Origin: Paraspadella gotoi
Taxonomy: Eukaryota > Animalia > Chaetognatha
Assembly: GCA_051294375.1 (NCBI GenBank)
Contig: CM119270.1
Coordinates: forward strand, 5,974,027 to 6,038,026
Direction of reading: 5' to 3'
DNA: 64,000 nt
In this document: positions 6,955 to 63,078 of the stretch, piece by piece
How the letters are laid out: every line of letters starts with the position of its first letter
How positions within the stretch are numbered: position 1 is the stretch's first letter
The notes under the pieces: model-generated
Seen by the model: only the letters and a program-made list of their open reading frames with translations
What the model was told of the DNA's origin: nothing
Database searches by the model: none
Position numbers and translations under genes: made by a program

Positions 6955-9900
6955 CGAAAGGCAGCGATTTGAAGAGAAAGAGATTGTAATGAATTCCAAA
7001 TTCAGAGAAAATCTATTTAACAAAGTATTAGAAATGAAAACCTAAGATTTTCATTCGACTTCATTGGATGTCATCCAATTTATTAGTTAATAACGATTTT
7101 GGGTAATTATTTAAATATCGTCAACTTATAAATAGTGGTCGTAAATAGTAATCTCTCTGCAAAAAAAAAAAGATACAAAGGTTTGTTTATATTTCCGTAA
7201 TTTCGGCTCCGCGTAAAAAAAGCAAAACAAAACAGAAAGAGAAAAATCCGAAATCTGAGTCTCAGATTCGGTCCAGGTCCGACGAAGTCCGTGAGATTCG
7301 GTTAAGTTTTTCTTCACTTTTTTCCCCTTTTTTCGCTACAAAGAGGAAAAAAATCGGATGTTTATACAATGTAAAAGGTTACTTTATGTAGATTGGAGAC
7401 GCATTTATAGACGGAAAATTAGTTATAAAACAGGAATAAATATTTTTTGAAAAGTCTCTAGTTTATGTTTTTGTTTTACTTGAAATTTATGGTAAATATC
7501 AAAATTTTATCTTTATTATCTTTAAATAGAATTCGACGATTATCGGCTTATTACATTTAGTTTTGAGTTAGTAATCGATGTTTTAGACGCAAACTATGTC
7601 GGCAAAGACAAGCTCACACACACCAGTAAAAAAAGGAAGTTACAAACTTTGGCTACCAACGCTTCAGATTTTTGCTTTGTTGGCTTTTTGTCGTATTTAT
7701 TTTGTTTTCGTTTCGTATTCACAGTTTGCTATTTTTATTCATTAAAGCTTCGAAGGTAAAGTTTCAGAAAAAAAAAAATTCCAAACTTCGCGATTCGAAC
7801 GGAGTAAAAAATAAACATTTGCCTGACTTTTTTTCACATACTTCATCCCATTTTTTTCTTTTTTTTTTTCTTGACCAAACATTCATTCAAAAGGGGGAAA
7901 AAAACGAGGCGCAACTTTTCTTGAATCGCGAATCTCAACGTGATTCAATTCGCGAAAATAAAATCAACAGAGAAAAAAACCTTTTGAAAAAAAAACTACC
8001 CAGGCAGACAAATATTGGATCGAGAGAGTGAGAGAGGGTTGGTGCGTTCCCTCTCTCTTTTCTCCTCTCTCACTCATAACTCTTTTTCGACCAATAAGAG
8101 TTGGAGAAATAAAAAAAAATCGGAGCTTTTAAAGAATGCCGTTTTAAAGAGCCCACGCAAAGGTTTTGCGTTTTCTGAGTTTCTTCTCCATCTATCACGC
8201 TCCAGAACCTGTGCAAGGGTCCTTATTATTGTTTTTTAGTAAATCAAATCAAAGGTTAAAATTCTTATTTGAAAAATATACTCAATAAAAGAACAAAATT
8301 TCACGTTTCATGTTTTATTGATCGATTTTCGATTTTCACTAGAGATTAGTCATCTTGCAGGATCATTTAACAAAGTTTAAACGAGCTTAAACAATACAAA
8401 TCCCTAAGAAGTAAATTTTATTGTCATCAGGCAAAGAAACGAGAGGAATCCTATATTTGTAAAGGTTGATAATTTTATAATTAACTATATGACAGCTTTT
8501 TCTGGAGAACACTTGTTTAGCATTATCCTCGTTTCTATAGAACTTGCGAGGAAGCGCGTTTGTACACCGCTTTGCGTTTTTTTCGTTTGCTTTAATCCGT
8601 ATAATTAAAATCATACGCGACTTTTTAATACTATCGTAACCTATTGTGATTATCGCAGAACTGCCTGATTTTCTGCTAAACTTTCCTAAAATGTTACGAA
8701 CGTTCATGTTAGCAAATTTACTCTGCAGCCTTTCAATTCAAACGTTAGTCTCAAAAACTACATTCATTAAATTAAAAAAAAAAGATTTGTCATGTTCATT
8801 TTTGTTTTTATTTCGATTTCACGAAAGAACAATCACTGAAAAAAACCTAGAGATAAAAATCGGATTTTACTAAGAAAAAAAAACTGGAAATATGACTTAA
8901 ATGACCGACTAATACATAATAAAAATTAATATGAAAAGACGCAAAGTTTAAAAAAAATGAAATCAAGAAGATGCGAAGCCAAGGAAAAGGGGGCGAAAGA
9001 TGGACGACCGCGGCGAGAGAGAACAAATGTAATAATTAATACAATGAACGTAGCCGACGATCGCGAGAGAAATTGATGGTGAAGGGGATGGGAGGGAAGG
9101 GGAGAGAGAGCGAGACGTTTTCTTCGCCAAATCGTCTTCGAATAACGAGTTTTTTTTTTTGGGAGACGTTTCACAGCGAAGAAAGGAGCGTGTAAGGAAT
9201 GACTTGTTCGTTCCACCACAAGGAGGTTTCGCGTTTTCCGCCGACCAGCGAATCCCACTTCACAATTCGATGTGATCCGACTTCGTAGTCTCCTCCTCCG
9301 CCTTCTCTTCCTCCGCTTCCTCCTTTTCGTCCTCGTCCTCTTTCTCGGCATCCTTGTCGTCGTCGTCTTCCTCGTCGACTTCGTCTTCTTCCTCTTTCTT
9401 CTCCGCCTCCTCCTTCGCCCTCTCCTTGGCGTCCTCGGCTTCCTTCATCTTCTTTTCCGGGTCCTGATGTGAAGGATTTTGAGAAAAGGTGAGACAAGAA
9501 AATGAAAGTGAAATAAAGTGACAGGGAGCTATTTACCTTGGTCACTTCGAAAGTCTCCTTGGCGAAAGCCTCGGCTTCCGCCGGATCGTCGCCGATGAAG
9601 ATGTTGTCGAAGATTGTGCCGGATTTCACCTGGAATAAGGAATAGAAAATATAAATAAAGAGGGAAACGTAAGGCCCTTACTAAGGGAGAGGAAATGGAG
9701 AGAAAAGATGAGTAGAAAGAGAGAGGCGAGGGAATAGGAAAGGGAAGATAGATGGGGAAGGAGATCGGCGGGGAGGAAAAAAGGAAAAGAAAATGATTGG
9801 TAGAAATCATTCGTCTATTTAAAAATACAAGGCCTCGCCACATTGCTTGGAGCGCATAAAAAAAAACAACATTGTACTTATAACAAAAACATGAAACTTC

Positions 9901-10947
9901 GGACGAACTCACCTGCCAGAGATCAAAACCCAACGCCCCGATGTCCGTGTAGCGGTAAAGGTGAGGTTCTTCATGGAAATCGGGGTTGGGGATTTTGGGG
10001 TGGACCCACTTGCCTTTGTAGGCAGGGTTGGGAATCTGCTTCGGCTTCCACTCGCCCTATGGAGAGAGAAATCATATTTTGAGATGGAAAGAGATTAAAG
10101 GTGAAAATTTTTTTATTTCAGAATTTATAAAAGTCACGAGGTTCAACTTGGCTCAGTTCATTAAACTATTTTAATATGTTTGAATTCAAAGAGCGGCTTT
10201 ATGTTTGGATTTGATTTTTTTGTTTTATTTCAGCGCGTTTCTTTGAACTATCAACAATAAACAAAGCCTTCTCCTATCATTATTCTTTAAAATATCAATG
10301 TTTCTCTTTCTTAATATCTAGAGAAACAAGACTATCTCCCGCACCATCCCGAAACCAATTGCATCCATGTAATCATCTTTCAGACTTTCCCAACTCACCT
10401 TATATTCTGGGTTATCGATCATAGCGGCCTCCCATTCGCCGTCCATCTCGTCGTCCCAGTCCTTCGGGCTTCTTGGCCTCGGATCGGGATGTGCTCGGGC
10501 TTGTCCCAGTCTTCGGGCTTCTCGTCGGTGGGGTCGGGGATGGACTCGTTATCGTCCCAGTCCTCGGGTTTCTTCGCGTCGGGGTCGAGAATCTCGCGCG
10601 GGGGAGGATGTCCCAGTCTTCCTCCAGGGAACCGCTCTCCACCTTTGGGAGGGGGAGGGAAAGGGTGAAAAAAATTGGAAAAAGCTTCACTAAAATGAGC
10701 AACATATGGGAAACGAAAGTTAACGAGGATAATATTAAAATTAAACAAAATACTGAACCGCGCCTTTTATATTTTTTTGGGTTTTTATTTCAGTTTATTA
10801 GCATTTCCTCATTTGCTCACCTTAGAATTATCGATTTTGACTTCGTAAGTGTTGTTCCGGTTTCACGATAAGAGTGTACAGATGAGTAAATTCGTCGTCC
10901 TGGGGAGAAAAATGTAAGCGGCGATTGATTCAAGGGAACGAAATATT
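2719..10947. repeat. Large inverted duplication: ~3.9-kb arms (2719-6643 and 7021-10947) with a 377-bp (GA)-rich spacer
   Basis: 7021 caaagtattagaaatgaaaacc is the reverse complement of the sequence ending at 6643. The mirror continues through CALR exons 5-9 to just before the 25-N gap; many ORF-track entries are mirrored. Confidence 0.95.
9260..10899 (-). CDS. CALR: Partial second calreticulin copy (exons 5-9), truncated at an assembly gap
   Basis: Same exons on the minus strand ending SDHIEL*. Synonymous differences from copy 1 in exons 8-9; indel frameshifts in the exon-6 copy nearer the gap. Confidence 0.8.
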
Positions 10948-10980
10948 ATCTCTTTNNNNNNNNNNNNNNNNNNNNNNNNN
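10948..10980. other. Possible adapter remnant (atctcttt) followed by a 25-N gap
   Basis: 25 Ns at 10956-10980; the preceding 8 nt no longer mirror the left arm and resemble the start of the PacBio SMRTbell adapter (atctctctctttt...). Confidence 0.55.
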
Positions 10981-11477
10981 ATTCGGAAATCCAGGCCGGA
11001 TCTTACAATGAATTGTAAGTGAAGCCAAATTTCAAGGGGGTCTCGTAATTGGTTTTCGAAAACCAATTTTTTTATCGCCATTTAATTCTTTTTTTTTTAT
11101 TAGAATGAGCGAACTGTGAAAAAAGGCTTGTATTTATTTGGAAATTGGATACTGTAAAAAATAATTAAACTCTGAATGATGTGTAAAAGACAAGGTAGCA
11201 TTCGTAGCATCAATAGTTGCTTTTAAATATTTAAATACAAAATACAATTAAATAAGTTTTTCACAATTTTGATCGGTAACAAAAGAAATGGGAATGGAAC
11301 ATACATACAGCTAAATCAGGAGAGCGTACATTAAATTGTTATAAATCAATGCAAAAAAGCCATTTTTTTATTGATTTATCAATCATTATTGATTCGATTT
11401 TCACCAGATGTTTACTTTGGAAATAAAAAAAATGAATGGAGTTCAGAACCAATAAATGAATAATATTTTCGGGACAC

Positions 11478-15400: not shown

Positions 15401-17693
15401 CCTCGAGTGGGAAGGATTCTGATGTGGTCAAAGGAAAGGAGATAAAGGTGGGCCTTGAAAGTGAAGCGAAACTTGAAAGTAAACAAGACGTGAAAGTGAG
15501 CAGTGAGAAAGGTGAGAATATCAGTCATGGCGCGGATGAGAAGATGGAAAAAGGAAAAGATCTCAAGAGCAAAGAAAATTTGTCAGGGACTTTAGAGGCA
15601 ACTGCAAAAATCTTCGGAAACAACCAGCGAAACAGCGAAATTTGCGGAAACAAAAGCGAAACAGGCAAAATCTTCAGAGACAACCATCAAATCAGCAAAA
15701 TCTTCGGAAACAACTGAACATATTTCACGATCGTCAAAAACTTTTAAAACTTCGACGCAAACAACGGAGGCCGAGGAATGGAAATCGAGAATTCGAGCGG
15801 AAGAAAAAAGATCTGAGCTCAAAACAGAGACAATTGATTGGCTCAAAGTGAAGCAAAACGAAGCCGAATCAGCGAATCGCTATACGAAGAGCGGAAAGAT
15901 TGAGAAAGAGGCTGAATCGGGGATGTGGAAGTCCTCAGGAAAGACGCAGAGAGAAAAAGACGCGCCGAGTCCGGTGGAAGGGTTGAAAGGAGTCACGCCC
16001 TCGGTTCAAAAGGTCGAATCTATTTCGACCAAATTAAGAGAAGATCAACCATCTGTTAATGAGACTTCCAGCAAAGACAAAACGGATAAGAATTTCCCCT
16101 CCGCGTTGCTGTCGCCTTCGGTGCCGCTCAAGCCTCCGTCGAAGCCGCTCCGGACGATCAGCTCCAAGACGGACGCCGTCTTTAACTCGCAGAAGGAAGT
16201 CTATGAGATGTTGATGTCGAAGGCGGAGAAGCAGCTGGACAAGCAGAACAGCGAATTCGAACGATTGCACAAAGACGAGGACGACATTTTGGACAAGATC
16301 AAGGTGAAGGGAGAAGGAGCTTGGTTTGCTTGCAGTTCCCCAATTCGTCCTTGGGATTTTTTTTAGCCGAAAAATTAGTTTTAGTTTTAGAAATTAGTTA
16401 TAGAAAGTTTTCGATGCAGTCGGTTTCGTGATAACTTCCTAAAACCATTCTAACAATGAATTTTATCAAAATATAATTTTCTCCCGTCCGATCTCCTTTT
16501 TAACGACATGAAATAATTCAACTTTTATAAACTCTCACAATCATCGTTATTAAATATTGTCTTATATTTCTTTTAAGTACTACTCAATTCTAACTCCTTC
16601 CTCCGACCGTCCTTTAATCACGCCCTGGAAACATTTTTAAATCGCGCTAAAGCAGCATTCGTTTATATGACTACATACAGCATTTTTATTTCCCTTGTTT
16701 TACTCAGATAGCGCGTTCCAGTCTTTCCATCATATTCTTTCGCCCACTTAAAAACCCTCAGGGTCTCATCCAATCAAAAGAGGAAAGCATCGCCCACGAA
16801 TCCGATCTTCACCAACGATTCTTGCAGACGGAAAAGGAGAATGTCGTCCCGTTGGAGTCGATGGAATCCGCAATGGAATCCGCGATGGCATCAGGCAGAA
16901 TGGCGGACGCGGATTCCGTCGAGGAACCGATGATGGCCAGAGCCCTCTTCACTTTTCACCCGCAAAATTCTAAGGAAATTCATTTTCCAAAAGGGGGAAA
17001 GTTGAGGATTTACAGGTGAACCTAAATCTAGATCGACGAATACATATTAACCGATGAAAAATAATATCCACTTTAAAAATTATGAATATAAAACAAATAA
17101 CTTTGAAGGATTTAGGATTTAAAAGTGGGAAGATATTTATTTGTGCGACTATGAAATATATAGGGGCAAGATAGCTTATTTATTAAATGAATGGATAATT
17201 TTTATATTGGTTGTACCAATTTCATAGAGAGCTAAAAAGCCAAATAGAAATAAAGAAACAGACAGAGAGACGGACAGACCAAACCCGCTCGTCTCCTCAA
17301 CAGGATCGTCGACGAGAACTGGTTCGAAGGATTCCACGGAAGAGACTTTGGTCTCATTCCTCGATCCTATGTCAAGATTGTCGAGGACGAACCAGCGGCG
17401 ATTTCGCCGCCGACCGCCCGTTCGCCGCTGGCGGGTTCGTCGCCGACAAGCCGCCGACCCGCCACGGCCGAGTCTGGATCGACTGCTGGTCGATCTCCGG
17501 CCAAATTCGCTCTGGGTGTGTTCCAAACTCCGGCCGTCGGAAAATTTGACTTTTTGGGTCAGAGTCGCGACGAACTTACCTTTAAAAAGGGTCAGGTACG
17601 TGTGCGTTGAAAATTAAAGGTCGATGGAGGATTAAAAAAATTAAACAAAATTTGGGTCTCTATCTCACCTTTTTCCTCTCTCCCCCCCATTTC

Positions 17694-17765
<72 letters not shown>

Positions 17766-18583
17766 TTCTCTCTTTTCTTCTCTCAGGTCCTCCTCCTCTC
17801 CCGCCGCATCGACGTCAATTGGTTGGAGGCGACGAACGGACGCGACTATGGAATCGTCCCCGCTTCTTACGTCCGCCTCTTGACGCCAGAGGAGGGCATG
17901 GCGGGCGGCCTGGCGGGCGGCGCCACTTCTCCGATTCCTTCCACCGGCGCCGTTCAAACGGCGTCGCCCCTTCCTTCGATCGGAATAGCGCCGTCGCTAA
18001 TTCGCGCGGCGGCGTCGCGAACCGGGGCTGTGTCGCAGGGAAGCGGCGCCGCCATGTCGCAGAGCAGCGCCGCGATGTCACAGAGCAGCACCGCAATCTC
18101 CAAGTACAGCGTCACCGACGACGGGGTCACCCATTCCTCTCATTCGGTCGAGTATCGATCGACGGGAGGAGCGGCGCCGCAATGGGACGGCGCGCGATTG
18201 ACGGCGCCGCAAATGTTGACGGCGGGGAAGAAAGTGAGCTGATTCATCTTCATCATCATCATTCGCTTCTTTATCACCATCATCACCATCATCACCCCAA
18301 ATAATTTGACCACAAAAAAACCCCACATTTTTCCAAATTTGTCCTCCTCACCCACGTTGTTCATTTGTTTCCCCCCCCCCTGCATCCACAGTCGTCCGGC
18401 CCCCATCGCGCCATCTACGACTACGTCCCCTCCGCCGCCGACGAGCTCCCCCTTCGCGCCGGAGATATAGTCCACGTGACCGGCGTCTGCGACGACGGGT
18501 GGTTCCTCGGCGAAGATGGCGCCACCGGCGCCGCCGGCACATTTCCCGGAAATTACGTGAGGCCGGTCACTCCGAGGGAGTGA
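12018..18583 (+). CDS. SORBS/CAP/vinexin-like adaptor with three C-terminal SH3 domains and a long low-complexity/coiled-coil N-terminus
   Basis: Approximate exons 12018-12395, 12655-12814, 12989-13418, 14238-15088, 15307-16302, 16762-17015, 17304-17595, 17788-18232, 18391-18583. SH3-1 ARALFTFHPQNSKEIHFPKG..VDENWFEG..GLIPRSYV; SH3-2 AVGKFDFLGQSRDELTFKKGQ..IDVNWLE..GIVPASYV; SH3-3 RAIYDYVPSAADELPLRAGD..CDDGWFLG..GTFPGNYV (SORBS-type). Needs two 1-nt homopolymer corrections (~13230, ~15608); the 5' exon linkage is inferred. Confidence 0.75.
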
Positions 18584-25300: not shown

Positions 25301-27392
25301 ATTCCGGCATCTAGCGCACTGCGAAAATTTTGCTAACTTCAACATTTTTTCGCTGGAACATGGATCCTCTTCGAAGGTTCATATCTCTGAGCAAACATGT
25401 GAGTCGTTGAGGAGTTTTGGCCTTTTCTTTTCAAGTGGAAATGACAACACCGACGGCGTAAATGTGAACTTAAGCAAGAGCGAGAGCGAAGAAGATGACA
25501 ATGACAGCGTTATGGTGGACAGCATCAACGTGAGCCGCAACTTTGATAATTTTTACTCGGCAGCATTCGTAGCGTTTTACGTGAGATAACTTCATCGAAC
25601 TCGATGGAGGAAAAATAACTTTAACAAGTTATAATTGAAATCTTATTCTTAATCTTACTTAATGCAAAGAGAAAAATTCACCCGTGATGATTTTCCCGCG
25701 ATTTTGCTTTTTCTTCTTTCCTCTCACTTTTTCCCTGACGGCGGAAGGAGGAGCGTCGTGAATGCAATTGACGCCGTCTATGGCGTTGATGCCGTCTATG
25801 GCGCCCGAGCCTCCGATTTGCAATTGGCTAGAGCGAGCGTAGTTTTGACTTTCGGCTTTGTAACGATTCCCCGTCTTTCTTCTTCTGATAAATAGTAGGG
25901 TTGCTATTATACAATCCATCTCCACTGAATTTATATGCAAATAGTTGTAAACGTTGATTTTTTTTTCTCTCTTAAAACTATTTAATTATTTCATTCAACT
26001 ATCGTTTACGCCTTAATAATGTTTAAATCTTTTCGCAAACAGGTGCCTAATCATGACTTTATCACTTAACGAAAAAGATTACAAACACTCAACAATAATA
26101 AACTAAATAATTAAAATTTATACAAATAAATTAGAAATACCTGGCGCGATCTTGAAAGACAATGAAAAATCCGACGCAGGAAGCAGCGACGGCGACTGTG
26201 AGAAGAGAACCGAAGCCGGCGCCAATTCCCACGTAGTAGCCCATCGCTGGAAATTGATAATTACTTCTTTGTTTTAGTCGCTGAGATTTTATGAATTGCT
26301 AAATATTTTTTTTTTGTTCTTTATTGCTATTAATTATTACAATATTACATAGCTCAGATTTTTTTAATTGTCGCTTAACACTTGTAATACAGACATTAAA
26401 TATTTAAAATTGAATGTACTATACTAGTCCGCTACTCAGGGCTGTAATAAAGATCAATACTTTATTAAAAGTATTAAAACAAATTCAGCATCCGTTCTTT
26501 ACCCTCGTAATACTCCGCCTCTCTTCCGTATTCCATCAAAGCTCCGAACTTCGTTTTGTAAAACCCGCGCCTTTTCACGAATTCGGGATCGAGGCATTTC
26601 GGCGGCTTCGCGCTCCAAGCGCTGTTCGATTCGCAGCGGGCAAAGGCGGAACCAGAGAGAAGAAAATCGGGGCGACAAATGAACATCGCCGTGCTGCCGT
26701 AGCGGAGGCCTGAATAGGAAAAGAGAAGGAAATAGTTGGGAAAGGAGTTTAAAGTTTAAACAATTGAAATTAAATTTGAACAATGAAAATGATTACTATG
26801 GAGACGGAAAAGCCAAAATTTAGAAAAAACAAAAAAATATAATGAAATTGGTACAACCAATATAAAAATTATACATCCATTTAATAAATAAGCTATCTTG
26901 TCCCTCACTTTGGACAGGCTTAAGGCCTCCATCGCACATAACTTAATATCTATTAGAAAACTAGAGCAGAAAGTAATCTCACCTTGGGTAGATGCACCCT
27001 CTATTTCCAGAAGGCAACACTAACGACCCCATCCCAAAAATAGATAAATTATATTAAATGTAAATATTTAACAAAGAAAAAATATCATAACAAATAAATA
27101 AAATCATAAATATTAAATACTTTAAAATCTAAAAAAACAGAATATATTTAACAAGTAACTTTGCAATTTTCATAGGGATGAAGATGAGGAAGAGGATGAT
27201 GAAGAAGACGTTGATGACGATAATGATGCTGACAATGAGGATATACAAATGATGCGAAGAAAAAAAGTAAAATGAATCTGATATTCACCCGCGGTGAGCG
27301 TCACGTTTCCATCCTCAATGTCAAGGTCGTCGCAGAAGACCTCTTTGCAAAACGGAGGCTCGCCAGACCAAGACCCGTTGTGGAGACACATT
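19541..27392 (-). CDS. 3' part of a Sushi/CCP-domain type-I membrane protein (1.5 CCP, TM, Tyr-motif cytoplasmic tail); 5' exons not adjacent
   Basis: Exons ~27392-27289 (MCLHNGSWSGEPPFCKEVFCDDL..), ~26709-26503 (YGSTAMFICRPDFLLSGSAFARCESNSAWSAKPPKC), ~26246-26141 (TM YYVGIGAGFGSLLTVAVAASCVGFFIVF), ~25885-25740 (RRRK..), 20287-20114 (EYYNTI) and 19776-19541 (YENV..GLTSL*). The phase link between ~25740 and 20287 is unresolved. Confidence 0.75.
20716..22768 (+). CDS. Secreted uncharacterised protein A (nested antisense gene), 5 exons
   Basis: Exons ~20716-20849, 21033-~21168, 21454-21687, 21754-21832, 22524-22768. Signal peptide MPWDFFVFFLCFSIVEG; ends GYFAVYVR*; exon-by-exon similarity to protein B. 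Confidence 0.75.
22984..25589 (+). CDS. Secreted uncharacterised protein B (paralog of A), ~6 exons
   Basis: Exons ~22984-23114, 23209-23332, 23531-~23670, 23901-23984, 24084-24156, 25285-25589. Signal peptide MINTKLSLILLLLSPVPSHG. Motifs shared with A: KFF, TYD, W-x-L-x-x-K, C..C..W-x-F-x-E, (I/V)VF-x-A, IV-x-NSSWP, A-x-YVR*. Confidence 0.75.
24245..25009. mobile_element. Helentron-associated interspersed element (HINE/DINE-1-like) in an intron of gene B
   Basis: Starts tttttagtcggatctgc..gcagatcccgactctata (5' hairpin), has (gtcc/gtct)n microsatellites, an internal duplicated block and a 3' subterminal inverted copy gcagatccgac (~24979) ending aaacttgtt. Confidence 0.65.
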
Positions 27393-41620: not shown

Positions 41621-41828
41621 CGAGTTTCCAAGATCTTCCGTAGGCGGCTAAACCGATGAGAAGTTTTTCCTTTGGGATTCCGAGCTCGTGCCAATAATTC
41701 ATCGCCTTAAAATAGATTGGGATTTGGTTTTAAAAAAATATACATTATCTAACTATTAAAAAGCCATTAACTTTTTTTTTAAATTTCAGTTTGGTTATCT
41801 CTCTCTCTTCTTCTTCTTCTCTCTTCTC

Positions 41829-41875
<47 letters not shown>

Positions 41876-43806
41876 AAGCCACATTGAGAGAGTCCTCTTC
41901 CTCCGTAGCTGAGAAGAGAGGAGAGTTGAATCCCGTTTTCGTCTCCCAGGATCCGTGAAGGTCATAGGTCATGATCCCGACAAAGTCCAGATCTTCACCC
42001 ATGACCTATGGGGCGATTGAAGGAATGGTAATTTTTTTTTGGTAGTAAAAACAATTGTGTATTTCAATGATAACGCCCTATATTCTAATCAAATTTTTGT
42101 TAACCATTTATTTAACTTTTTTCATTTTCCATCTTTTAATTTTCCGTATTTTACGGTAAGTAATACTAATTTTTTCACATGTACCTACTTCCCACTGATA
42201 CGTTGCTTTTATTTCGAAATATATTTCGATTGGATTTTCTTCAAAAGTTACTTGAATTAAGTTAATTATCGGATATTAAATATTATAACATTACAATTAC
42301 TTTAGCGTCGTAACCGGCGTCAATCTTGGGTTTTGCGGCGGCGACGGCGGCCGAGAGAAGCAATCGATTATTCTTCGATTCTTCATTTATCGACTTTCTA
42401 AATGAACAATTAAATATATAAATTAGTTAACAAGCCAAATACGATTGTTAACTAGCGAAAAAACCGGATGGGAAAATTCTTCCCAATAAAAACATCAACC
42501 CTTTCAAATTAAAATTTAAATTTAAATTTTTTTAAATTAACCGAATAAAAATATATATGAAATTGGTACAACCAATATAAAAATTATCCATTCATTTAAA
42601 ATAAATAAGCTATCTTGCCCCTGATTATATATTGAGACTAAAAAACAAACTCAATACTTGCGAACATTGCCACCATTTGCCACCGACCTGAAGGCCCTGA
42701 TGAGATCGGCGTGCTGCTTCTTCTGCCATCCACCCGGATATTCCCAGTCCAGATCGATTCCGTCCAAATTTCGGTCTCGAACGAAACGGATCGCGTTTTT
42801 GGCGAAGGTTCGTCTGAGAATTGAAAATGAAATTTACTCTATTCAAAAAATAAACGAACACATAAAAAGAAAAAAAGAAAATTTTGTCAGGAAATGTTTG
42901 AAAATGTTTTTCACATATAACTAAAAAAACGAGACCTTTGATAAATCTTCGACCGACCTTTCCGTTATATAGCATTTCAACTTTGACTTGTCCTTATTCT
43001 ACATACCTTAACTCCTATTCCGCATCCACGAAGACGTTAATACCTACCACCTCACAATATAGACCAAATCGAATCCTCGCTGCCCTCACTATTTCATCGT
43101 TTGGCCTTACCCGATCCTCACCCTTTCCTCACCTCGACGCTCCATCCCTGGCCGCCTCCGTGAAACCTTTGTTTGCCTCCGCGTTGGCGCCGCCGACGGA
43201 AATGAGGATTTTCAAATCCGGATTCACGGATTTTAGTTTCTTGATTCGACGCAAGAGGTCCTCGTCGTTTTTGGCGCGGGCCGTGGGTTTGAGGGACAAG
43301 TCTAACCAATCAAAGAATCAATCAGAAATCAGTCAATGAGTCAGTGATAGAATGAAGGAGTCAATGAGACAATGAATAAACGTTTTCGTCTATAAATGTA
43401 TGAGTTGATGAATAAAAGTTTGAGTCAGTGAATTAATAATTCAATTTATTAATTAAACCATTATTAAATTTAAATCAATCATTTAATAATTGAAGAATAA
43501 TCAAAAAATCAATCAATCAATCAATCATTCAATCTTCTCACCCTCGATGTAGTAAAAAGCATAAAGAATGTGCGTGCAGAGAAAGGGATCTACGTCCTCG
43601 GGCCAAAGCCGGGCTTCCGCCCCTCGGTCCTGTGACCAGTTGTTAAAGTAGCAGACGCGCCTCTTCTCGGCCGAGCCGGACGGCGTTCCGGAGGAGAAGC
43701 GGGCAATCCCGGCGAGGATCCCGGCGAAGACGAGTAAAGTCCGGACGGCCGAGAATGGAGAGAGAGTCGAAAGAGCGGGAAAAGACGGAAGGAGGAAAGT
43801 TGCCAT
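41621..43806 (-). CDS. Inverted second copy of the chitinase 5' exons (inverted homology continues, increasingly noisy, to ~44900 vs ~32400)
   Basis: ORF-track fragments KRRVCYFNNWSQDRG.., [29 protein letters not shown] and [25 protein letters not shown] on the minus strand. Confidence 0.85.
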
Positions 43807-46259: not shown

Positions 46260-49200
46260 ATGAGTCTTGCCGGACTCGTCGTCTCCACGCTGCTGAATGC
46301 GGTCGATGTGATGACCGATCTCCGCACAGCCCTAGCACATTTCCAATACGAAAACGATGAATTCAAAAAAATAGGTGAGTGAAGAGACAGTAATTATTGA
46401 TAAGTGTTAATGACAGAACCGTTCAATATAAGCAGTCCCTGAGCTTCGGATCAGGCTGTAACACCATGTTACAGGCGGGTTAAGCGCCCCGTCCCTCTTA
46501 ATTGCCAGACGACCACCGGGCTAGAACCCCGGACCTTTGGGTTGGGAGGCGAATGACTTGCCTCCGGCACCAATGGCCACTGATGAACGGTTGGTGGATT
46601 TTAGTCCATCATACATCCCCCCTCCCGTAGGGAAAAGTCTGGTGCGTCTCTTCAGTGAATTGTTGTTGTTGGTGGAAAGTTCGTCACTATTCACTAAGTT
46701 GAGGCATGTCGCCTGATGTGTTGTGGGCAGAAAGTGCATCGCCAGGTTAAGGCATGTCGCCTGAAAGTGTTGTTGTTGCTGTTGTGTTCGGAAGTCGGGC
46801 TCACCAATGAAGAGACAGTAATCATTGATAAGTGTTAATGACAGAACGTTCAATATAAGCAGTCCCTGAGCTTCGGATTAGGCTGGTAACACCAATGTTT
46901 ACAGGCGGGTTAAGCGGCCCCGTCCCTCTTAACTTGCCAGACGACCACCGGCTAGAACCCCGACCTTTGGGTTGGGAGGCGAATGATTGCCTCCGGCATC
47001 AATGGCCACTGATGAACGGTTGGTGGATTTTAGTCCACCATATGAGAATCTTTTAAGATTTTTTTTTTTTTTGTAAAACGTAATATCAGTTTTGTGAAAA
47101 TCTTCAAAATTGATATGTGGTGGTATATTCACCCCGCCTCACGTCCACCATCTGTTGGCTTAGAGGGAGAACGCACCATCCAAGCGTTGCGTTCCATCCA
47201 CAGTCCTAACATCTTCCCTCTGGGTTGGCAAAGCGAAACCGTCCTCAGGTAACCGCGCCAGTGGCAGGAGGCATCGCTGAGGGTCGGAAGCCCCAAAGCC
47301 AACAGTGAGATGCCTCGTACCAACTGGCGTCACAGGCGACCCGGCTGTTGCCATAGTTGAATCAATTTTGCACCTATTCATCAAAAAAAACCTTAACTTG
47401 TTACCAAAGGTAGAGGCCTTGTGTCTACCCTCGTCATCCACGCAGTGGTCGCTTTTTATTTCGGACTCACCCACCTCATGAAGTTCAGAGCCATATATCC
47501 CCGCCTCTTGGGGACGCGCGCTCGATGGGCCTTTCTTTTGAGCTTCGTCGGCCTGGGCTCGATTCCCTTATCGATTGATTTATACTTGGATCAGGTAGGT
47601 AGGGCATTGACGGAATAATGTCAAAATGTTCAGGTGAGGTGACCACTTAAAATAAATACTGTGCGTAATACGTAGAGTGGACTTTATAGTTATATATAAT
47701 TATTAAAGCGTAGCAAAAATATTAAAATCAAGTAGAATCAAAATTCGAATAGTAGATCATGAAGAGGCTTATTTTTTTATTTTTCAATTTTCTTATACGC
47801 CCATATTTATAATTATATATAGAAAATGTTAAAATTTTAAAATGGTTTTTTTTCTATTTTTGAAAGCAGATTCGAATTCCTCACGAAAAGTTGATAAACG
47901 GAAATAGAACTCTTTTTAGAAAATTATTTCATTAAGTGGGTCCTGGACTTGCAATCAGGCTTGGAAGGGTCTCTGCTCCCCCAAGCGTCCTTGTGCTTCC
48001 CATAAGGGAGGTACCGGACTTGAATTGAACCCGATACTTAGTACCTTTTGACCATAGGGTACTTGCTTTAGTCAATGAGCTTCCAGGTCACAAATCGCCA
48101 CTGAGTGTGAGTTATCTTTAGATGGGGTGAAACTGGGCATAGGGCTTTGCCCGCTACAGATCAACATTAGCTTTTTATTCCTATCAAATTCATTAATTTT
48201 TTTTTAATCATTTTTAATCTTTGTCAATCAATACTCTTTGTTTTTAGACAAGGTCATTGGCTTCAAATTTGGGCGAAAAAGACGACATTATAAATAAACT
48301 GAACTTGATCCATGTTTTATTAGAGTCATTTCCTCAAATGGTAATTTCAAGGCCGGTTAAAAACTGTTTCGCATCATATATAAAAAAAAATTTTATATAA
48401 CTGGTTTTTTTGTTTTTTTGATTAGGTATTACAAACTATATCACAAGTGTTCCTTTGGACTTTACATTCTCGATACCTGTGCATCCATAACAATTTTTTT
48501 TATTCATATTACGATGATCAACGTCTCGGGAAATTACTGCATATTGATTCGAATATGTCTAATTCAGAGAATTCATTTACAAAACCATGTCACTGCGATT
48601 ATATTAGAAAATTATATCGTAGGAGCTATATTTGCAAATGGAGTATTATGGAAAACTGGTTCACCTTAATTTCGATAGCAATGTCAACAATCAGCCTTGC
48701 CAAAGTTGCCATTGATTTCAGAGACTTTACTCAACTTACAGTACAATCCAACAGAGGCACTCTATGTTTTAACCAATTATCATACTTTTGTGGAATATTT
48801 CAGGGTGCGTTTGGTTTACTTGTTTGTATTACTATTTTAACAAATAAGTCCTTACAAACAAACTATTTATTTTATGGTTTGTTTATTTTAATGCCTTTCA
48901 GAGTTTTTACCTTTGGAGAAATGTTTACTATTTTAAGATGGCTATGTATGAATACAAATTTATATTCATCAGACAAATTTTCCTATCATATTGCTCTTTT
49001 ACCAATACTTAATTTTCTTTTTTCTTCTTTTTTTTCCTATTGTGACAAGTTTATTTTACTTAAGGACAGAGGGTTTGTCAAGATCGTTAATAAACTTAAC
49101 TTATTAAAACTTTTCAATTATCCTGCACCGAAGTTTTTCTTTTATCGTTTTAATCATGGTGCTTACTATATTACCAAAAGAAGTATTGATAATCGGTTTA

Positions 49201-50447
49201 GAACAGCATTGGGATCAGTATTAAGAATCTTTCCTTTGACAAAATATGTGTCTTGGATTGGCTATAGAATTAGCTTTGAAATTCATCTAGGAAACTATGC
49301 AGCTCTCTCTACAGACCAAATTGTGTTGGATGTTATGTTGTTGATAGATAATACACTAAGCACGTTATATACTGCTTTAGTTTTTTGGGAAAAAAATTGC
49401 CCTGGATTATTTTGGATTTTATGCGTCTGGAACCTCATTTTATGTTTTAAATTGTATTTTCTCATTTTCATTAATGTACGCCATGTTAATTTTATTGCAT
49501 TACGAGATACTTTTTTCGGTCATAAAACTATTAGTCCATTTGTTTATCCAGGAAAATGGCCAGTTGAGCTTACAAAAGTACCTTTGTCAGCAATTAAAAA
49601 AAGAATAGCGACATCTTTCTGGATGGTGAATATTGGTGAAACTTTATTTTCAGTTGTATGGCATGTCTTTTTAACGTGCTTCGCGATAAATATAATTGAA
49701 GAATTTGTTAAATTGCCAAAAGAAAAATTACAGAAATGCAGATCAATTTACTCACGTAGTATCACGCTATTTATTGGACTCCTATATTCATCTTTTTCAC
49801 TAACAGCTCCTTTTCTCAGATTGTTCCAAACACAAATCGTGCAACAGATTGCCGAAGATTATTTATTTTCTTGTAATATATCCATTAATCACCCTGAACA
49901 AGTAAAACCATCTCGCAGTGATAATATTTTTTTAATCAGTCATTTAGTAAAATTGTATTACTTTTGGTCGTGCTTATTAACTCTGCCTCTTTATAAATTT
50001 ATACTCGAGCATTTTCTCACCAAATATTCAAACAATTGTAGAATAATATTTTGTTGTTTTACAATTTTAATGTTCGTATCTTTTTACGGAATCAAGAAGA
50101 AAACTTCTCAGTTGGAAATTGAATCGAATGTCGCGACAGAATTTCGGCGCGATGTCATTCGTGTAATTGAGGAATATTTGATTGAGACCGAATCACGAAG
50201 GCTACATAGTTACCGACATTTTGACCCTATTTACTCGGTCGCCATTTATCACTACGAATATAAGGACTTTTGCAGGTTGAACAAAGAATTTTCTAGCGCG
50301 ACATCAAACGCTTCGGGAAGATCCTCCCACGCGGCAGTCAAATGGCTGGTGAACTTTGTGCAAGAGTCTCACGATAATACGAAACTGGACATTTACTTTC
50401 TGACTTTAATCTTAATTCCAGCGACGGTCTATTTATCTTTTTTTTAA
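46260..50447 (+). CDS. XK-related (XKR scramblase family) multipass membrane protein, ~804 aa, 4 exons
   Basis: Exons 46260-46374, 47410-47594, 48248-48340, 48426-50447 are phase-compatible (2415 nt) and extend the 666-aa ORF. XK-type motifs: AVDVMTDL in TM1, LLESFPQMVLQ (ESAPQLxLQ-like) and LISIAMSTISLA. Confidence 0.75.
46380..47042 (-). mobile_element. TRIM with tRNA-like LTRs (Helenus-like), family 1
   Basis: LTRs 46380-46613 and 46808-47042; TSD tgag/tgag. Sense PBS TGGTGAGCCCGAC and [14 protein letters not shown]. The LTR carries tggtgccggagg..ctcccaa..ggttctagccc (tRNA A box, loop, B box). Confidence 0.9.
47116..47355 (+). mobile_element. Solo LTR, same family as 45616-45870
   Basis: Reverse-complement homolog; starts tgtggtgg, has tggcttagagg and gttccatcc, ends gttgccata; no perfect TSD. 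Confidence 0.6.
47933..48158 (-). mobile_element. Possible further solo LTR or tRNA-derived element in an XK-gene intron
   Basis: GC-richer island; sense strand starts TGTAGCGG and contains gggttcaattc (B-box-like); no TSD found. Confidence 0.35.
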
Positions 50448-57210: not shown

Positions 57211-57697
57211 AAAAGATTTACAATTTTTGACGTTTTGTTATTAGTAGATTACCCAGTGCAGACCCCCCAAAAAATATCTTCAGACATAAAATAACATGCA
57301 ATGGTTATATTTCACAAATTAATTACAGGTTTACTGTGAACAAATAAAACATGAATAAATGCTTCTAATTCATAATAAAGAATACGATATCACATTCCGA
57401 CACTTATGAGCATAAAGGCAAACTTTTTTGTAAATAATGTAATATATCAAAAAAGATTTACAATTTTTTGACCTTTTGTTATTAGAAGATTACCCAGTGC
57501 AGACCCCCCCAAAAAATATCTTCAGACATAAAAATAACATGCAATGGTTATATTTCACAAATTAATTACAGGTTTACTGTGAACAAATAAAACACGAATA
57601 AATGCTTCTAATTCATAATAAAGAATACGATATCACATTCCGACACTTATGAGCAAAAAGGCAAACTTTTTGTAAATAATGTAATATATCAAAAAAA
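57211..57697. repeat. Two-copy tandem direct repeat, ~240-bp unit
   Basis: aaaagatttacaattttt..gtaatatatcaaaaaa at ~57211-57451 and ~57452-57697, near-identical, between two convergent genes. Confidence 0.92.
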
Positions 57698-57815
57698 GAA
57701 TAAAAAAAAATTCAGCTCACCAGTTATGATTCATAACTTATGACTCATAAAAAAATTAAATAGAAAGGTGTATGAGTTTAATGTAAGCAATCATATCCCG
57801 TAAAACAACTGAGAT

Positions 57816-57894
57816 AAAGTTGATGTTAAAGACTTTTCTGTTACAAATGTTTATCATAAACATTTGTAACAGAAAAGTCTTTAACATCAACTTT
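57816..57894. repeat. Perfect 39-bp inverted repeat with 1-nt spacer (hairpin)
   Basis: 57816-57854 aaagttgatgttaaagacttttctgttacaaatgtttat, then c, then its exact reverse complement at 57856-57894. Confidence 0.97.
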
Positions 57895-57944
57895 GAAGGA
57901 AAAAAAAATCAATGCATACTAGTCAATTAATACTGAAACTAAAA

Positions 57945-60900
57945 TCAAATGAAAGTTGAGGTCCTGATACTCCACCCGCCTCCAACTTCTATTTCAAACG
58001 GATACTTGGAAAACTCTACTTTCATGATGTTGTCCTTGTTGCCGAATGACACTCCGTTAAGGGAGACCTTCAAATCCCGAGGGCGAACCCGCTTCCTCAC
58101 TTCCGGCGCCAGGCGTTCCATGAATTTTCCTTTAAGAGCGCTTCCGTTGAAGGTCTTCCTAAAGTCCAGGAGGAACTCCAAGCCCTCGCCGATAGGAAAG
58201 TCGGCGGACCGGACGAGACACTGCAGCTTCGATACGCGAACCTCCGAACCTTCGAGAACAGAGAACTCCAGTTCGCCGCGTGCATTTGAAGGTCTTTGTT
58301 CAAAGATGTTAGTTCCTTGCTCGGTGATGGCGAAGATGCTCTCTGGATCAGCGTCCGGCCAAATTCTGTTCACGTCTTCCAAGATTCTTTCACGGATAAC
58401 TAATCCGTCGATCTTGGTCATCGGTTCTTCTGTGGGAAATTTCAATATTTTATTCACAGAGATGATGTAAAATGTCTTCGGTTCAAAGTAAGAGAACGTT
58501 ACTCTTATTGTGTTTTCCCTCAGCAAAGGTCGAAGCCAACCGGTTACGGATACTCTTTCATTGTGACCATTCACCAATTTCCAAAATTCTTGAAAATAGA
58601 TATTTTCGTCTGGGTTTTTGTTTTGGGTGAGTCTCTCGTGCTCATAGATCACATAAAGCGATAGGTAAGGAAACCGTTCTGTAAAGTAATCGTACAAATC
58701 TTCCGGCGGCGGCGCTTTTACGCCAAATACCTTCTTTAAGGTTTTGCTTTCTTCGAGATAATGAGTATAGACGTTGCGAACGAAACGAATCAAGTCCGCG
58801 CATTTCGTGATTCTGTATCCGTTAAACTTACAACCAAAAGTAAACAATAGATCGGAGTGGAACAATTTGTTCCAAGATCCCTGACCTCCGATGATTAAAC
58901 TAGAAATTTGTTCCGCCTCGTCGACTTGCAGGCCCGGACTTTTGGGATTTCTGTTCGATATTAGCCACTCGTTCAAATAGTTGAGCAACCCGATAATGTC
59001 CTTGGGCGTGAGAAAGGCTGGTGCTTGTATCGCGTCCATCGCGCAGAGACCTTTGCGGAGCGCGAGGGTAAGAACCTCGAATTCAGTCGTTTTGTCTATT
59101 TGGATCTCGTCAATGATGTCGGCGGCGAATTCCAAATCCGTCCGATGATACTCTTCGTAATCGTGTTCGACGGAGACGCAGTTTAAAAAGTAGCCAATTT
59201 TCAAGGTTGGATTTTTTGGACACCCGCAGAGGAAAATTGTGTCCGGAGATAAGGCAAGATGGAAAACGGGAGGAGTTAACGAATGAAGATGAGCTACTCC
59301 TTTGAGAAGCTGCCAACATAGATCGTTTTTGTGCAGGACCAATTGGTCCGGGTCATCGGTTTCAAATGTTTGTCTTAAAGTTGCCAACGTTGGTTCCACC
59401 ATTAAAAATCCTTGGACCAAGTGCTTCAAACTTAACTCGGTGGAAAAAGAGTTGAGTATGAGAATGTTGTTGCTATATGTCATTTCGCGATGAATTTTAG
59501 ACTTTTGGCGAAAGTTTTTAATCTTTTTGAAGGAGCCAGTTGGAACGGTGGCGTAGGAAGGATACTTTCTTTTCAATCTCAAAATATTCAACGAATGAAC
59601 GGCTTTAAACAACGCTATAATACCGACTAAACAAGCGAAAAACCGCGGAATGTGGACTAAAATAAATTGACACTCTTGATAATTTTCATCGAGTGTCGCC
59701 CTGGAAGAGCATTTAAAGCCTTCCATCGACTGATACTCTTTTGCGTAAGAATAAAGATAGACGAGAGAACAACTGGAGCAATCCCAATTATTGCCAGTCG
59801 CGATAATTTTGGTATTTGTTAATTGTTTTAACTCTTGCGGTAATTTCGTTAAACTATTGTTGGTGAGGTCGATCGTTTCTACTGTGGGTATTTTCATGAT
59901 TTCAGCTTTTGGAGAAAATGTTCGTATGGTGTTGTTCGTGAGATTCAACATTTTAACATAATTAAGGCCAACGATTCTTATGTGACCAATTGTTGTGATT
60001 GTATTGTTACTCACGTTTAAAGAGATGAATGGCTTTTGGCCCGAGCTTCGATAAATTATAAATATTTTATATAATTTATTATGCCTTGCTTCAATGTATT
60101 GAAAAATATCAGTAGGATTAAGGTTGAAGTCTAAATTTAACCAAAACAAATTATTGCCATCGAGTTTTATGCGGGAAATTCTGCTGTTGGTAAAAGCATT
60201 GGGAACCAAAAATCGAATGTTATTGTAGGAAAGGTCCAAAAGTCTCGCCGTCATGCCAGAAAATTGATGAACTTTAATCGTTTGTATTTTGTTTTCGGAA
60301 ACGTCAATGACGGCATCATTTCCAAAGTTTTTCAGTTTCATGACCCCCAATGAATCTTCCCAGTCATTCCATCTGGCATGGAACCTTGAGACTTTCAATG
60401 ACAACCGATGGTCCGTCAAAGGTTTAGCGCAACCCAAGATATAAACACTGTTCATGCCTCTTTCGCGGCCGAAAAAATGATTGAGCATCAAGGCCGATCT
60501 CTCAATCTCCATGGTAACATTGTGACAGTATTTCGGCCGATCCTCCGGGCTTTTATCCATGAAATTCCGGGAGCAGCAACCGAATTTGATGACTATCAAA
60601 AAAGAAAAGATAAATGAATCCGCGCGAATTTTGACCAGCGGATTGTGAAGAATGCTCAAGGTATGCATGTTTGTGAGGTTTTTCATCAGCGGTATGGGAA
60701 TTTGCGAAAAGGAATTGTTATCTAAATACAATTCCAAAATCGTGTTGATCTTTGGAATTGTCAAGGATTTCAGAAAATTTCCCTCGAGTAAAAGATACTG
60801 CAAACCTAAAAGATTGTCAAAAAGCGACTCGTGCAGATGAGACAATTGGTTGAAACTGAGATTCATCACTCTGATCGCCTCCAGATTAGAAAAAGACCCC

Positions 60901-62392
60901 GGGTCTATTTGATAAATTCGATTTAAACTCAAATCGAGACATTTTAATATTTTCAGCGTCGAAAAAGTTGTTACTTTTATTTCCTTAATACGGTTTCCTC
61001 TCAATTTCAATAACCTCAACGACTTTGTTTCTTTAAAAACGTCCTCATCAATGAGTTCTATGCCAAAATCAGTTACCGATAAAGTACGGAGCGTCGCCAA
61101 GTTGGTAAACAGATCTCTGCTAAGAACAGTTAGATTCCCGTTTTTCAAATACAGCGTTTGGAGGTTAATCGTATTTTTTAAAAAATCATTGTTCAGCCTT
61201 TTGACGCCGTATATTTCCATGTACGTGATGGAATCGTGTCGTCCCGGCAAACTCGTCAAATCCACTCCACCCCTGTGCCAAATCTTCAGGTGAGTGAGTC
61301 TCGTAAAATTGGGAAAGTTATTCAGAGAGGAATCGACGCCTGCCACAAACTCTACTGACAAATTGACAACTGGGGACACGAACTGCAAAAACTCGGAAGT
61401 CGTCAACTCGTTGCCCGTTAGATAAAGATAAGTCAGGTTGGGCGTGCCCACGAAAGCATCCGGCGAGATGTAGCGAATTCCGGCATTTTTCGCTTTGATG
61501 TACTTTATTGTGGATAAATTAGCAAATTGAGTCGTGATGTTGGAGATTTTGTTTTGGTTCAGATCTACGTAAGATAAGGGGGCGTCTTTTAACGAGTCTT
61601 TGCCTATATAATCTATGGTGTTGTTATAGAAGCTTATCTGGGTCAGGTAAGGATAGTCTCGAAGAAAGTCCTTCTCGATCCTTTTGAGACCGAGATTTCT
61701 GAAGCTGATTTCAAAGTTGTTGGGCTTTTGGAAGCAGTCCTTGAGGCGAGGACAGGCGTGGTGATGGGTGGTGGCCTTGTACATGATGTCCCGGGTGAGC
61801 CTGGAGCAGTTCTGCGAGGAAGATTTAAAATATTAGAACTTATAAATTCTAATAAAAGTATGTACTAACTTTTTGTTTTGGGTTTATGTTTTATATTTTG
61901 TGGTCGCATTTTTCAATTCGAGGTGATCACGTGACTACACAAAAAAGAAATTTATATGGACTACAAGTTTTAATATTTTTTCAATTTCTGCCTAGTACAA
62001 CTAAGTTTTGAGCATTAGATGAACATTAGATGAACACAGAGGCAAACAGACAGACCAAAAGTTACTCTTCGCGGAACTAAAAAAAAATTGGCTTGTGAGG
62101 ACCCAACGGAGGAAGATTTGAACATTACTTTAAAAAGGTCTGAAATTCCATAAAGTCTTTTTTTTTTTCTGACAATGATCTCAAAATGTAAAGAACTTTT
62201 TTGGTTCTGACTTCTCACCGCGGATTTAAACATCGGCGATGGAACATCCGATCCATTCCAATAAACAATAAAGAGAATAAAGTCTTTTTCGTTGAAGTGA
62301 TTTTTTTCGTTCCAAGTCCGCAAAGCGCATTCTCTCCCCGACGAAACCACGAACAAGAAAAGAGTCAGGAAGATGGTACAAAAGTTGGACAT
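57945..62392 (-). CDS. LRR receptor with TM, pseudokinase, KEN (IRE1/RNase L-type) ribonuclease and possible ubiquitin-like tail; ~1346 aa, 2 exons
   Basis: Exon 1 62392(or 62413)-62219 has signal peptide MSNFCTIFLTLFLFVVSS and a phase-0 donor gtgaga. Exon 2 61811-57945 is in frame with the 1279-aa ORF. About 20 LxxLxLxxN repeats; LRRCT GNNWDCSSC..FKC..C; TM FFACLVGIIALF; kinase remnants QLLKGVAHLHSL..VFHLALSPDTIFL..LKIGYF; KEN W..LF..Y..DLIRFVRNVYTHY..YFTERFPYL. Confidence 0.93.
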
Positions 62393-63078
62393 CTTAGCGA
62401 CGGTGGGGGTCATTGTCGTCGTTTGTTATAATATCGGATGGTTCGTCTCGAGTTATTCGTCTATTGGGTAGTGGAGTGGCGTTAGAGAGTCTGGGTTTTC
62501 AATGAAGTCAGATGCAACCACGATGTCGTTGGCTTCAGTCGATGCGGGTTTGAGCTCGCGACGGAACGGCCATTAATTTAATTTAAAAAAAAAAATGTTG
62601 AACGCTTAGTCATGAATGGGATTGCGTTGATAAACGAGGAGCTCGCCCGGACCCAGTTTTTTTTTTTTAATCTTTAGTGCCTTTACCCTGCTCTTTACCC
62701 TGCTCGACAACAAATGAAAAATTGAGGATTTTAAAGATTTTAAAGATGAAAAATTAGTTCTCGAATAGATCGACAATACAAGACTTTGCAAATAATTTGT
62801 TGTTTTTTTTTACAAGGAAATTGTTTTGTCAGCCTTAAGACCAAAAAGAGCTAACGCGAATTTGGATTGTCCCCATTGTTCTGATAGTATGAACAAGCTA
62901 CAAAGTGATACGCGAAGATACGAATCCAGAATCTGAGTCATGGTTTTATTATGAATTACAACCTCGATCCTCATCCTCCTCTTCCCCTCCCTCTCCCGAG
63001 GATCCGTCCTTTTTAGTCCACTCTCCGCGGTTCTCGAGTTCTACTAACTTCCTTCTTTTCTAATACTATTTCCGGCCA

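Follow-up and report, generated by a model that had tools for sequence, protein, structure and literature searches.

Here we describe a gene of the chaetognath Paraspadella gotoi that encodes a membrane receptor joined to a ribonuclease. The gene lies on the minus strand of a 64,000-nucleotide (nt) stretch (GenBank assembly GCA_051294375.1, contig CM119270.1, positions 5,974,027 to 6,038,026), which we call the window and within which all coordinates are given. The spliced product has 1346 amino acids and a single terminal stop. It combines a signal peptide, a leucine-rich repeat (LRR) ectodomain, an LRRCT cap and one transmembrane (TM) helix with a truncated pseudokinase, a KEN ribonuclease domain and two predicted ubiquitin-like (Ubl) domains. 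This architecture is almost certainly real. As for its role, we favour with modest confidence a ligand-gated receptor ribonuclease acting in defence.

The initial annotation, made from the letters of the DNA, had proposed a two-exon gene with signal peptide, LRRs, LRRCT, TM helix, kinase remnant and KEN-like segment. The length of the product, the Pfam matches and the hydropathy profile bear this layout out. Its wider reading is supported in part: the gene, the KEN domain and the joining of the two halves stood, while the ubiquitin-like tail and the multigene family had been overlooked. The gene and its product are divided as follows.

62219 to 62392, minus strand: exon 1, 58 codons with the signal peptide and N-terminal cap, start ATG at 62392
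61812 to 62218, minus strand: intron of 407 nt, GT..AG, phase 0
57945 to 61811, minus strand: exon 2, 1288 codons and the stop, from the LRRs to the C-terminus without a further intron
62336 to 62392, minus strand: predicted signal peptide, residues 1-19, hydropathy 1.69
59793 to 61721, minus strand: LRR ectodomain, about residues 89-731, Pfam LRR_8/5/4/1
60420 to 60581, minus strand: mid-ectodomain cysteine cluster GCC..C..GC, kept in the relative P0002 and present in the relative P0003
59667 to 59792, minus strand: LRRCT cap, residues 732-773, with four cysteines
59580 to 59666, minus strand: single TM helix, residues 774-802, hydropathy core 774-792
59013 to 59513, minus strand: truncated pseudokinase, residues 825-991, an alphaC to alphaI remnant without beta1-3, HRD Asp, DFG, activation segment and APE
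58635 to 59003, minus strand: KEN (HEPN-type) ribonuclease domain, residues 995-1117, from Pfam PF06479, Ire1 alignment and fold match
58761 to 58817, minus strand: catalytic set Y1057, R1070, N1071 and H1075, corresponding to yeast Ire1 Y1043, R1056, N1057 and H1061
58230 to 58514, minus strand: predicted Ubl domain 1, residues 1158-1252, from the tail model and whole-tail Foldseek, with weaker support than domain 2
57984 to 58226, minus strand: predicted Ubl domain 2, residues 1254-1334, from VIA-align to the parkin Ubl

The KEN assignment is backed by both profile and structure. Pfam Ribonuc_2-5A (PF06479) matches with E 1.5e-13 and 51.4 bits, against a cut-off of 23.3, and the top phmmer match of the domain is yeast Ire1 (E 1.6e-11). 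The motifs lie where the initial annotation had placed them, and the R-N-x3-H that it took to be retained aligns with Ire1, together with the tyrosine. In Ire1 these four residues serve as an acid-base pair and phosphate ligands, according to an excerpt of PMC3149027. The cytosolic part was modelled with AlphaFold2 (15 sequences, predicted local distance difference test, pLDDT, 76.5), and Foldseek with this model returns IRE1 entries first and RNase L next. In VIA-align the predicted model superposes on Ire1 with Z 14.6 (root-mean-square deviation, rmsd, 4.7; 287 aligned) and on RNase L with Z 12.7 (rmsd 4.1; 258 aligned); other kinases reach up to Z 13.7, by the kinase part only. Judged by this superposition, the predicted fold is a helical KEN joined to a kinase C-lobe.

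In terms of conservation, R, N and H are kept in all 20 family rows (about 25-35% identity to the query) and Y in 15 of them; the rows were collected for their resemblance to the query, a selection biased towards conserved KEN motifs. P0002 is best conserved in its KEN, with 35% identity against 25-30% in its other regions. The domain is probably catalytically active, as far as its residues tell. A two-copy complex prediction of the cytosolic part, made without alignment and without controls, scored 0.00 twice and is uninformative either way.

The truncated pseudokinase was compared, motif by motif, with five IRE1-like kinases and with the intact-looking relative P0061. It retains alphaC, alphaE, alphaF, alphaH-I and the strands of the catalytic loop. 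Lost are the G-loop, beta3 lysine, HRD aspartate, DFG, activation segment and APE, with HLA in place of HRD and GYF in place of DFG, and the kinase part comes to about 195 residues, against 283-379 in the five IRE1-like rows. Because these elements are missing, the predicted pseudokinase cannot have working kinase activity, and ATP binding in the usual mode is unlikely.

P0061 is the deepest-branching family row. Its kinase motifs ahead of KEN look intact and its tail is short; it is a possible link to a kinase-active ancestor.

The hydropathy profile passes the threshold in two segments only, residues 1-19 and 774-792, and P0003 likewise begins with a hydrophobic segment. Of the N-glycosylation sequons, 18 precede the TM helix and 1 follows it, and the 31 residues after the helix hold 11 K/R and 0 D/E. 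From the sequons and this positive-inside charge pattern we infer a type I topology that places the LRRs outside the cell or in a lumen. Pfam finds LRR_8 on exon 2 with E 2.4e-50 in 8 stretches, and with 13 strict and 18 loose motif matches the "~20 LRRs" first claimed was a fair count. The four LRRCT cysteines align in P0001, P0002, P0003 and P0008.

By sequence, the ectodomain is closest in the PDB to ALS, LRRC15 and LGR4/5, and next to TLR13 and TLR3. Such repeats give little phylogenetic signal, and the top LRR matches reflect generic repeats. No TIR domain was found in the Pfam scan at E up to 1, the cytosolic part being wholly assigned to pseudokinase, KEN and Ubl. The initial annotation had called the receptor Toll-like. 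This term holds for the architecture (LRR, LRRCT, single TM) and does not imply descent from Toll-like receptors (TLRs), since the best ectodomain matches are generic LRR proteins and TIR is absent.

Regarding the gene model, exon 2 falls within a minus-strand open frame of 1295 codons (57945-61832), and the chance of 1288 codons without a stop at the local composition is about 1e-34. A second in-frame ATG is present at 62413, 21 nt upstream of the start at 62392. The splice is seen in run X9, which comes from another study and another individual and is RNA by guess only, its nature not being on record. An X9 contig joins across exactly 61812-62218, that is, with the predicted intron removed, and covers the exon 1 side at 62219-62451. 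At 90% likeness X9 has zero cover at 61916-62099 (intron) and 62468-62835 (upstream), while the DNA runs cover both; a short X9 piece of depth 2 extends into the intron (62152-62248). The intron skip and the coverage pattern are good evidence that the gene has a spliced transcript.

The entire gene is found in a single 5125-nt contig of run X1, possibly the source of the window. Contigs of X5 (58577-60074), X6 (58748-59944) and X9 (57753-60183), which are other samples from two other studies, each bridge the last LRRs, the TM helix and the KEN active site, so that the TM is also spanned in the probable RNA run. The coding-region differences listed between runs are substitutions only, none of them frame-breaking. 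An assembly chimera of the LRR and KEN halves, a doubt raised with the initial annotation, was rejected on these independent bridging contigs, on the observed splice and on the same layout in the distant homologues P0002 (27% identity) and P0003 (23%).

A cluster of seven X9 substitutions within 44 nt (58704-58747) changes four residues of the KEN immediately past the catalytic His. Either allelic divergence or gene conversion involving a paralogue may account for it.

The receptor belongs to a family of its own. A phmmer search of 1.84 billion representatives gave 78 matches at E <= 0.001 and 15 at E <= 1e-10, and the top ones are not IRE1. P0002 (1393 amino acids) is colinear with exon 2 end to end, its ectodomain aligning over 729 columns (E 7e-75) with cysteines in common. 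P0003 (1457 amino acids) shows signal peptide, LRRs, two LRRCT-like motifs, TM, pseudokinase, KEN and tail. The N-truncated P0008 has the same layout from the last LRR onward, with the kinase remnant doubled. Among the 20 clusters looked up, none has an NCBI or UniRef source and 2 bear generic names.

In a quick maximum-likelihood tree of 67 KEN rows, a branch with SH-aLRT 98 separates the 20 family rows, labelled beforehand, from 47 IRE1-like rows, with long branches flagged. Excluded were 9 sequences without a KEN match, 2 that were too short, 1 truncated and 6 of one cluster, from which P0085 was retained. These 20 rows form an apparently undescribed multigene KEN family, separate from IRE1-like KEN in this tree.

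Further copies are also indicated in the animal itself. At 80% likeness, a 4236-nt contig of X1 matches the tail (58210-58253) and the KEN (58788-58824), in order, and a joint of the same depth leads from it to the ectodomain cysteine motif near 60568, this third piece not being separately listed. A second KEN paralogue occurs in X1 and X9, and more pieces match the tail and the ectodomain. Thus at least two paralogues are likely. Searches elsewhere gave no additional members: tblastn of 7 family proteins found no further copy in the window, JGI metagenome contigs, scanned twice, yielded 111 and 590 pattern matches with 0 confirmed relatives, and the ESM Atlas returned leads below 0.9 only (generic pseudokinases at 0.88, the tail at 0.75). 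Runs X10 and X11, from other organisms, gave 0 contigs, a result that carries no weight.

P0085, in one cluster with P0007 and P0082, has a Ubl-LRR-Roc arrangement and two hydrophobic segments, followed, apparently, by the same pseudokinase-KEN-Ubl module. Here a Roco sensor seems to stand in place of the LRR-TM ectodomain. The join is a lead only, because the cluster also includes a form without the module.

The C-terminal 190 residues form two predicted ubiquitin-like folds. Modelled separately (pLDDT 87.8), the tail as a whole is matched end to end in Foldseek by linear di-ubiquitin and ISG15 (E 6e-6), with a low global TM-score. Domain 2 superposes on the parkin Ubl with VIA-align Z 9.8 (rmsd 1.9, 68 aligned). 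For domain 1 a beta-grasp is suggested, less firmly, by secondary structure and by the whole-tail matches to di-ubiquitin and ISG15. Furthermore, the family profile matches the RAD23 Ubl (E 0.002), and P0012 and P0085 have weak Pfam ubiquitin matches. A profile comparison of the two tail halves, on a poor alignment, gave no match.

Past the stop codon, the 3' untranslated region (UTR) contains one further element.

57816 to 57894, minus strand: perfect 39-base-pair palindrome, 50 nt past the stop, fold z -9.9, unique in the window

In X9 three adjacent A>G changes (mRNA strand) fall in the stem of the palindrome, at 57880-57882, and are not in the DNA runs X1 and X5. The element is a candidate for an adenosine-to-inosine edited hairpin, from one contig of a different individual.

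In the defence mechanism that we propose, a non-self or damage ligand would pair the ectodomains, replacing the luminal or the 2',5'-oligoadenylate (2-5A) trigger, and this pairing would bring two KEN domains together. KEN pairing is proposed because the RNase surface has to be paired in both IRE1 and RNase L; in Ire1, RNA docking is split between two RNase subunits (PMC3149027, in part). Cytosolic RNA near the membrane would then be cut, which would arrest translation or kill the cell independently of TIR/MyD88 signalling. The pseudokinase would act as a spacer or docking scaffold and not as an ATP switch, and the ubiquitin-like tail might recruit partners or target a dangerous enzyme for turnover. 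We favour defence because fast divergence, paralogues, a near-intronless gene and the apparent sensor swap of P0085 are typical of invertebrate immune families.

Several points weigh against this proposal. LRR receptors also act in adhesion and development, and the ectodomain has no specific TLR affinity. The LRR-TM-KEN layout is visible in just 3 of 19 tree relatives, most of which are fragments, and the family rows carry the collection bias given above. RNase L sequences are not included in the tree. The full mRNA is not within one RNA contig, with gaps at 60184-60314 and 60755-60762. Finally, the N-lobe strands of the kinase are lost, and RNase L dimerisation requires pseudokinase-pseudokinase contacts (PMC4730318, in part), so the known activation route is not directly copyable.

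Among the alternatives, a receptor RNase that is active but triggered outside immunity survives best, although we consider it unlikely. Its LRRs would bind a host ligand, in adhesion, development or allorecognition, and the KEN would cut or splice specific mRNAs. ALS, LRRC15 and LGR4/5 being the best ectodomain matches agrees with this, as does the colinear ectodomain of P0001 and P0002 with its conserved cysteines; precise splicing is indeed done by IRE1 (PMC3149027, in part). However, the top LRR matches reflect generic repeats, and the paralogues, the low identity among relatives and the possible Roco swap fit defence families better.

It is decidedly unlikely that the KEN is silent, or binds RNA only, and that the receptor is a scaffold signalling via pseudokinase and ubiquitin-like tail. 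The heavily eroded kinase would suit such a scaffold, as would a tail resembling the tandem Ubl of di-ubiquitin, ISG15 and OASL and the replacement of Y in 5 of 20 family rows. Against it, R, N and H are kept in every row and Y in this protein, while neighbouring residues drift.

Quite improbable, too, is a stress sensor resident in the endoplasmic reticulum (ER) or endolysosome, an IRE1 offshoot with its luminal domain replaced by LRRs and a decay activity like regulated IRE1-dependent decay. The receptor does share the topology of IRE1, and IRE1 entries lead the sequence and fold matches. Nevertheless, an ectodomain of LRRs and LRRCT bearing 18 sequons is what receptors of the surface or of endosomes typically have, and a long branch sets the KEN group apart from the IRE1-like rows. 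Lastly, we give hardly any credence to an artefact (assembly chimera, recent accidental fusion or pseudogene): the whole-stretch contig does come from X1, perhaps the window's own source, but LRR, TM and KEN are bridged in X5, X6 and X9 from other samples, the splice is seen, no frame is broken and P0002 and P0003 repeat the layout at such low identity.

To our knowledge, ER stress for IRE1 and 2-5A for RNase L are the only two characterised switches of KEN nucleases. A ligand-gated receptor ribonuclease, if true, would be a third KEN switching mode and the first animal receptor that turns an outside ligand directly into RNA cleavage. More tentatively, there could be an undescribed multigene animal immune system whose plug-in pseudokinase-KEN-Ubl-Ubl effector serves both LRR receptors, at the surface or in endosomes, and cytosolic sensors of Roco type. 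A ligand alone would trigger RNA destruction through one polypeptide and dispense with adaptor, second messenger, kinase cascade and transcription, and receptor ribonucleases would form a class of their own next to receptor kinases and TLRs; this wider picture we hold possible but doubtful. With an LRR receptor joined to KEN, some invertebrates could have a route to RNase L-like defence without TIR signalling, a question of defence raised, in an excerpt of PMC8609888, for animal groups without TLRs. The stripped kinase would offer a test of whether KEN activation needs proximity alone, and a natural single-chain RNase under ligand control would give synthetic receptors a simple scaffold.

Other features of the window were also recorded. 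Two near-identical genes in opposite orientation, at about 1500-4400 on the plus strand and about 8900-11000 on the minus strand, are presumably calreticulin-like, by sequence recognition. Exons at 17254-18580 (plus), 26477-26755 (minus) and 41748-42005 (minus) match the SH3, Sushi and GH18 chitinase families. Together with the calreticulin-like genes, they indicate no more than an intron-rich animal. A hydrophobic open reading frame of 673 codons in a single frame (48426-50447, plus) has no Pfam match at E up to 1 over the 624 residues scanned. Downstream of the receptor gene there is a tandem duplication of about 242 nt (57211-57700). Upstream of it, at about 62959-63000, lies a short high-copy element, where all four runs show very high depth and numerous loose ends.

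As for known systems, the closest is IRE1/ERN1 (yeast Ire1p, human IRE1alpha; PDB 2rio, 3fbv, 3lj0). It shares the type I topology, a kinase fold followed by KEN and the Y/R/N/H catalytic set, and gives the best sequence and fold matches. It differs in its luminal unfolded-protein sensor, where the receptor described here has a whole LRR ectodomain, and in its active Ser/Thr kinase motifs, all missing or replaced here. In addition, our receptor has the tandem Ubl tail and belongs to a multigene family with its KEN on a separate branch. RNase L (PDB 4o1o, 4oav) likewise combines a repeat-domain sensor, pseudokinase and KEN, with the fold match of Z 12.7. Unlike our receptor, with its LRR sensor across the membrane, RNase L is soluble and senses 2-5A through ankyrin repeats; Pfam found no ankyrin match on exon 2, and a signal peptide and TM are present instead. 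The full pseudokinase fold of RNase L mediates dimerisation (PMC4730318, in part), whereas the kinase is truncated here.

The tail resembles ISG15, OASL and linear di-ubiquitin in being a C-terminal tandem of two ubiquitin-like folds. Identity is about 10-18%, however, the inter-domain angle differs (whole-tail TM-score 0.3-0.4) and the relatives lack a conserved terminal Gly-Gly. Lineage-expanded KEN/HEPN proteins are similar in their lineage-specific expansion of RNase effectors with varied fusions. The accessible part of a HEPN survey lists KEN fusions with kinase, ankyrin, CCCH, UBI (one KEN-ubiquitin fusion) and BRCT, reports solo KEN expansions in Oikopleura and monocots, and links HEPN/KEN expansions to defence (PMC3710099). 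That part names no LRR-TM ectodomain on KEN, and the LRR fusion in its table is a DZIP3-type HEPN, another HEPN family. Consistent with the novelty claimed by the initial annotation, queries of the full-text literature, with subscription journals outside coverage, returned no LRR-TM-KEN receptor among the matches listed.

Finally, TLRs share the signal peptide, the LRR array and an LRRCT adjoining one TM helix, and the second LRRCT-like motif in the mid-ectodomain of P0003 recalls the multiple-cysteine-cluster TLRs. Here, by contrast, the sequence shows no specific TLR affinity, TIR is absent and the output would be enzymatic. Having no TIR, the receptor is not a TLR by the definition given in an excerpt of PMC8609888. 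The protein is one that would work like IRE1 or RNase L, yet belongs to neither of them nor to the TLRs.

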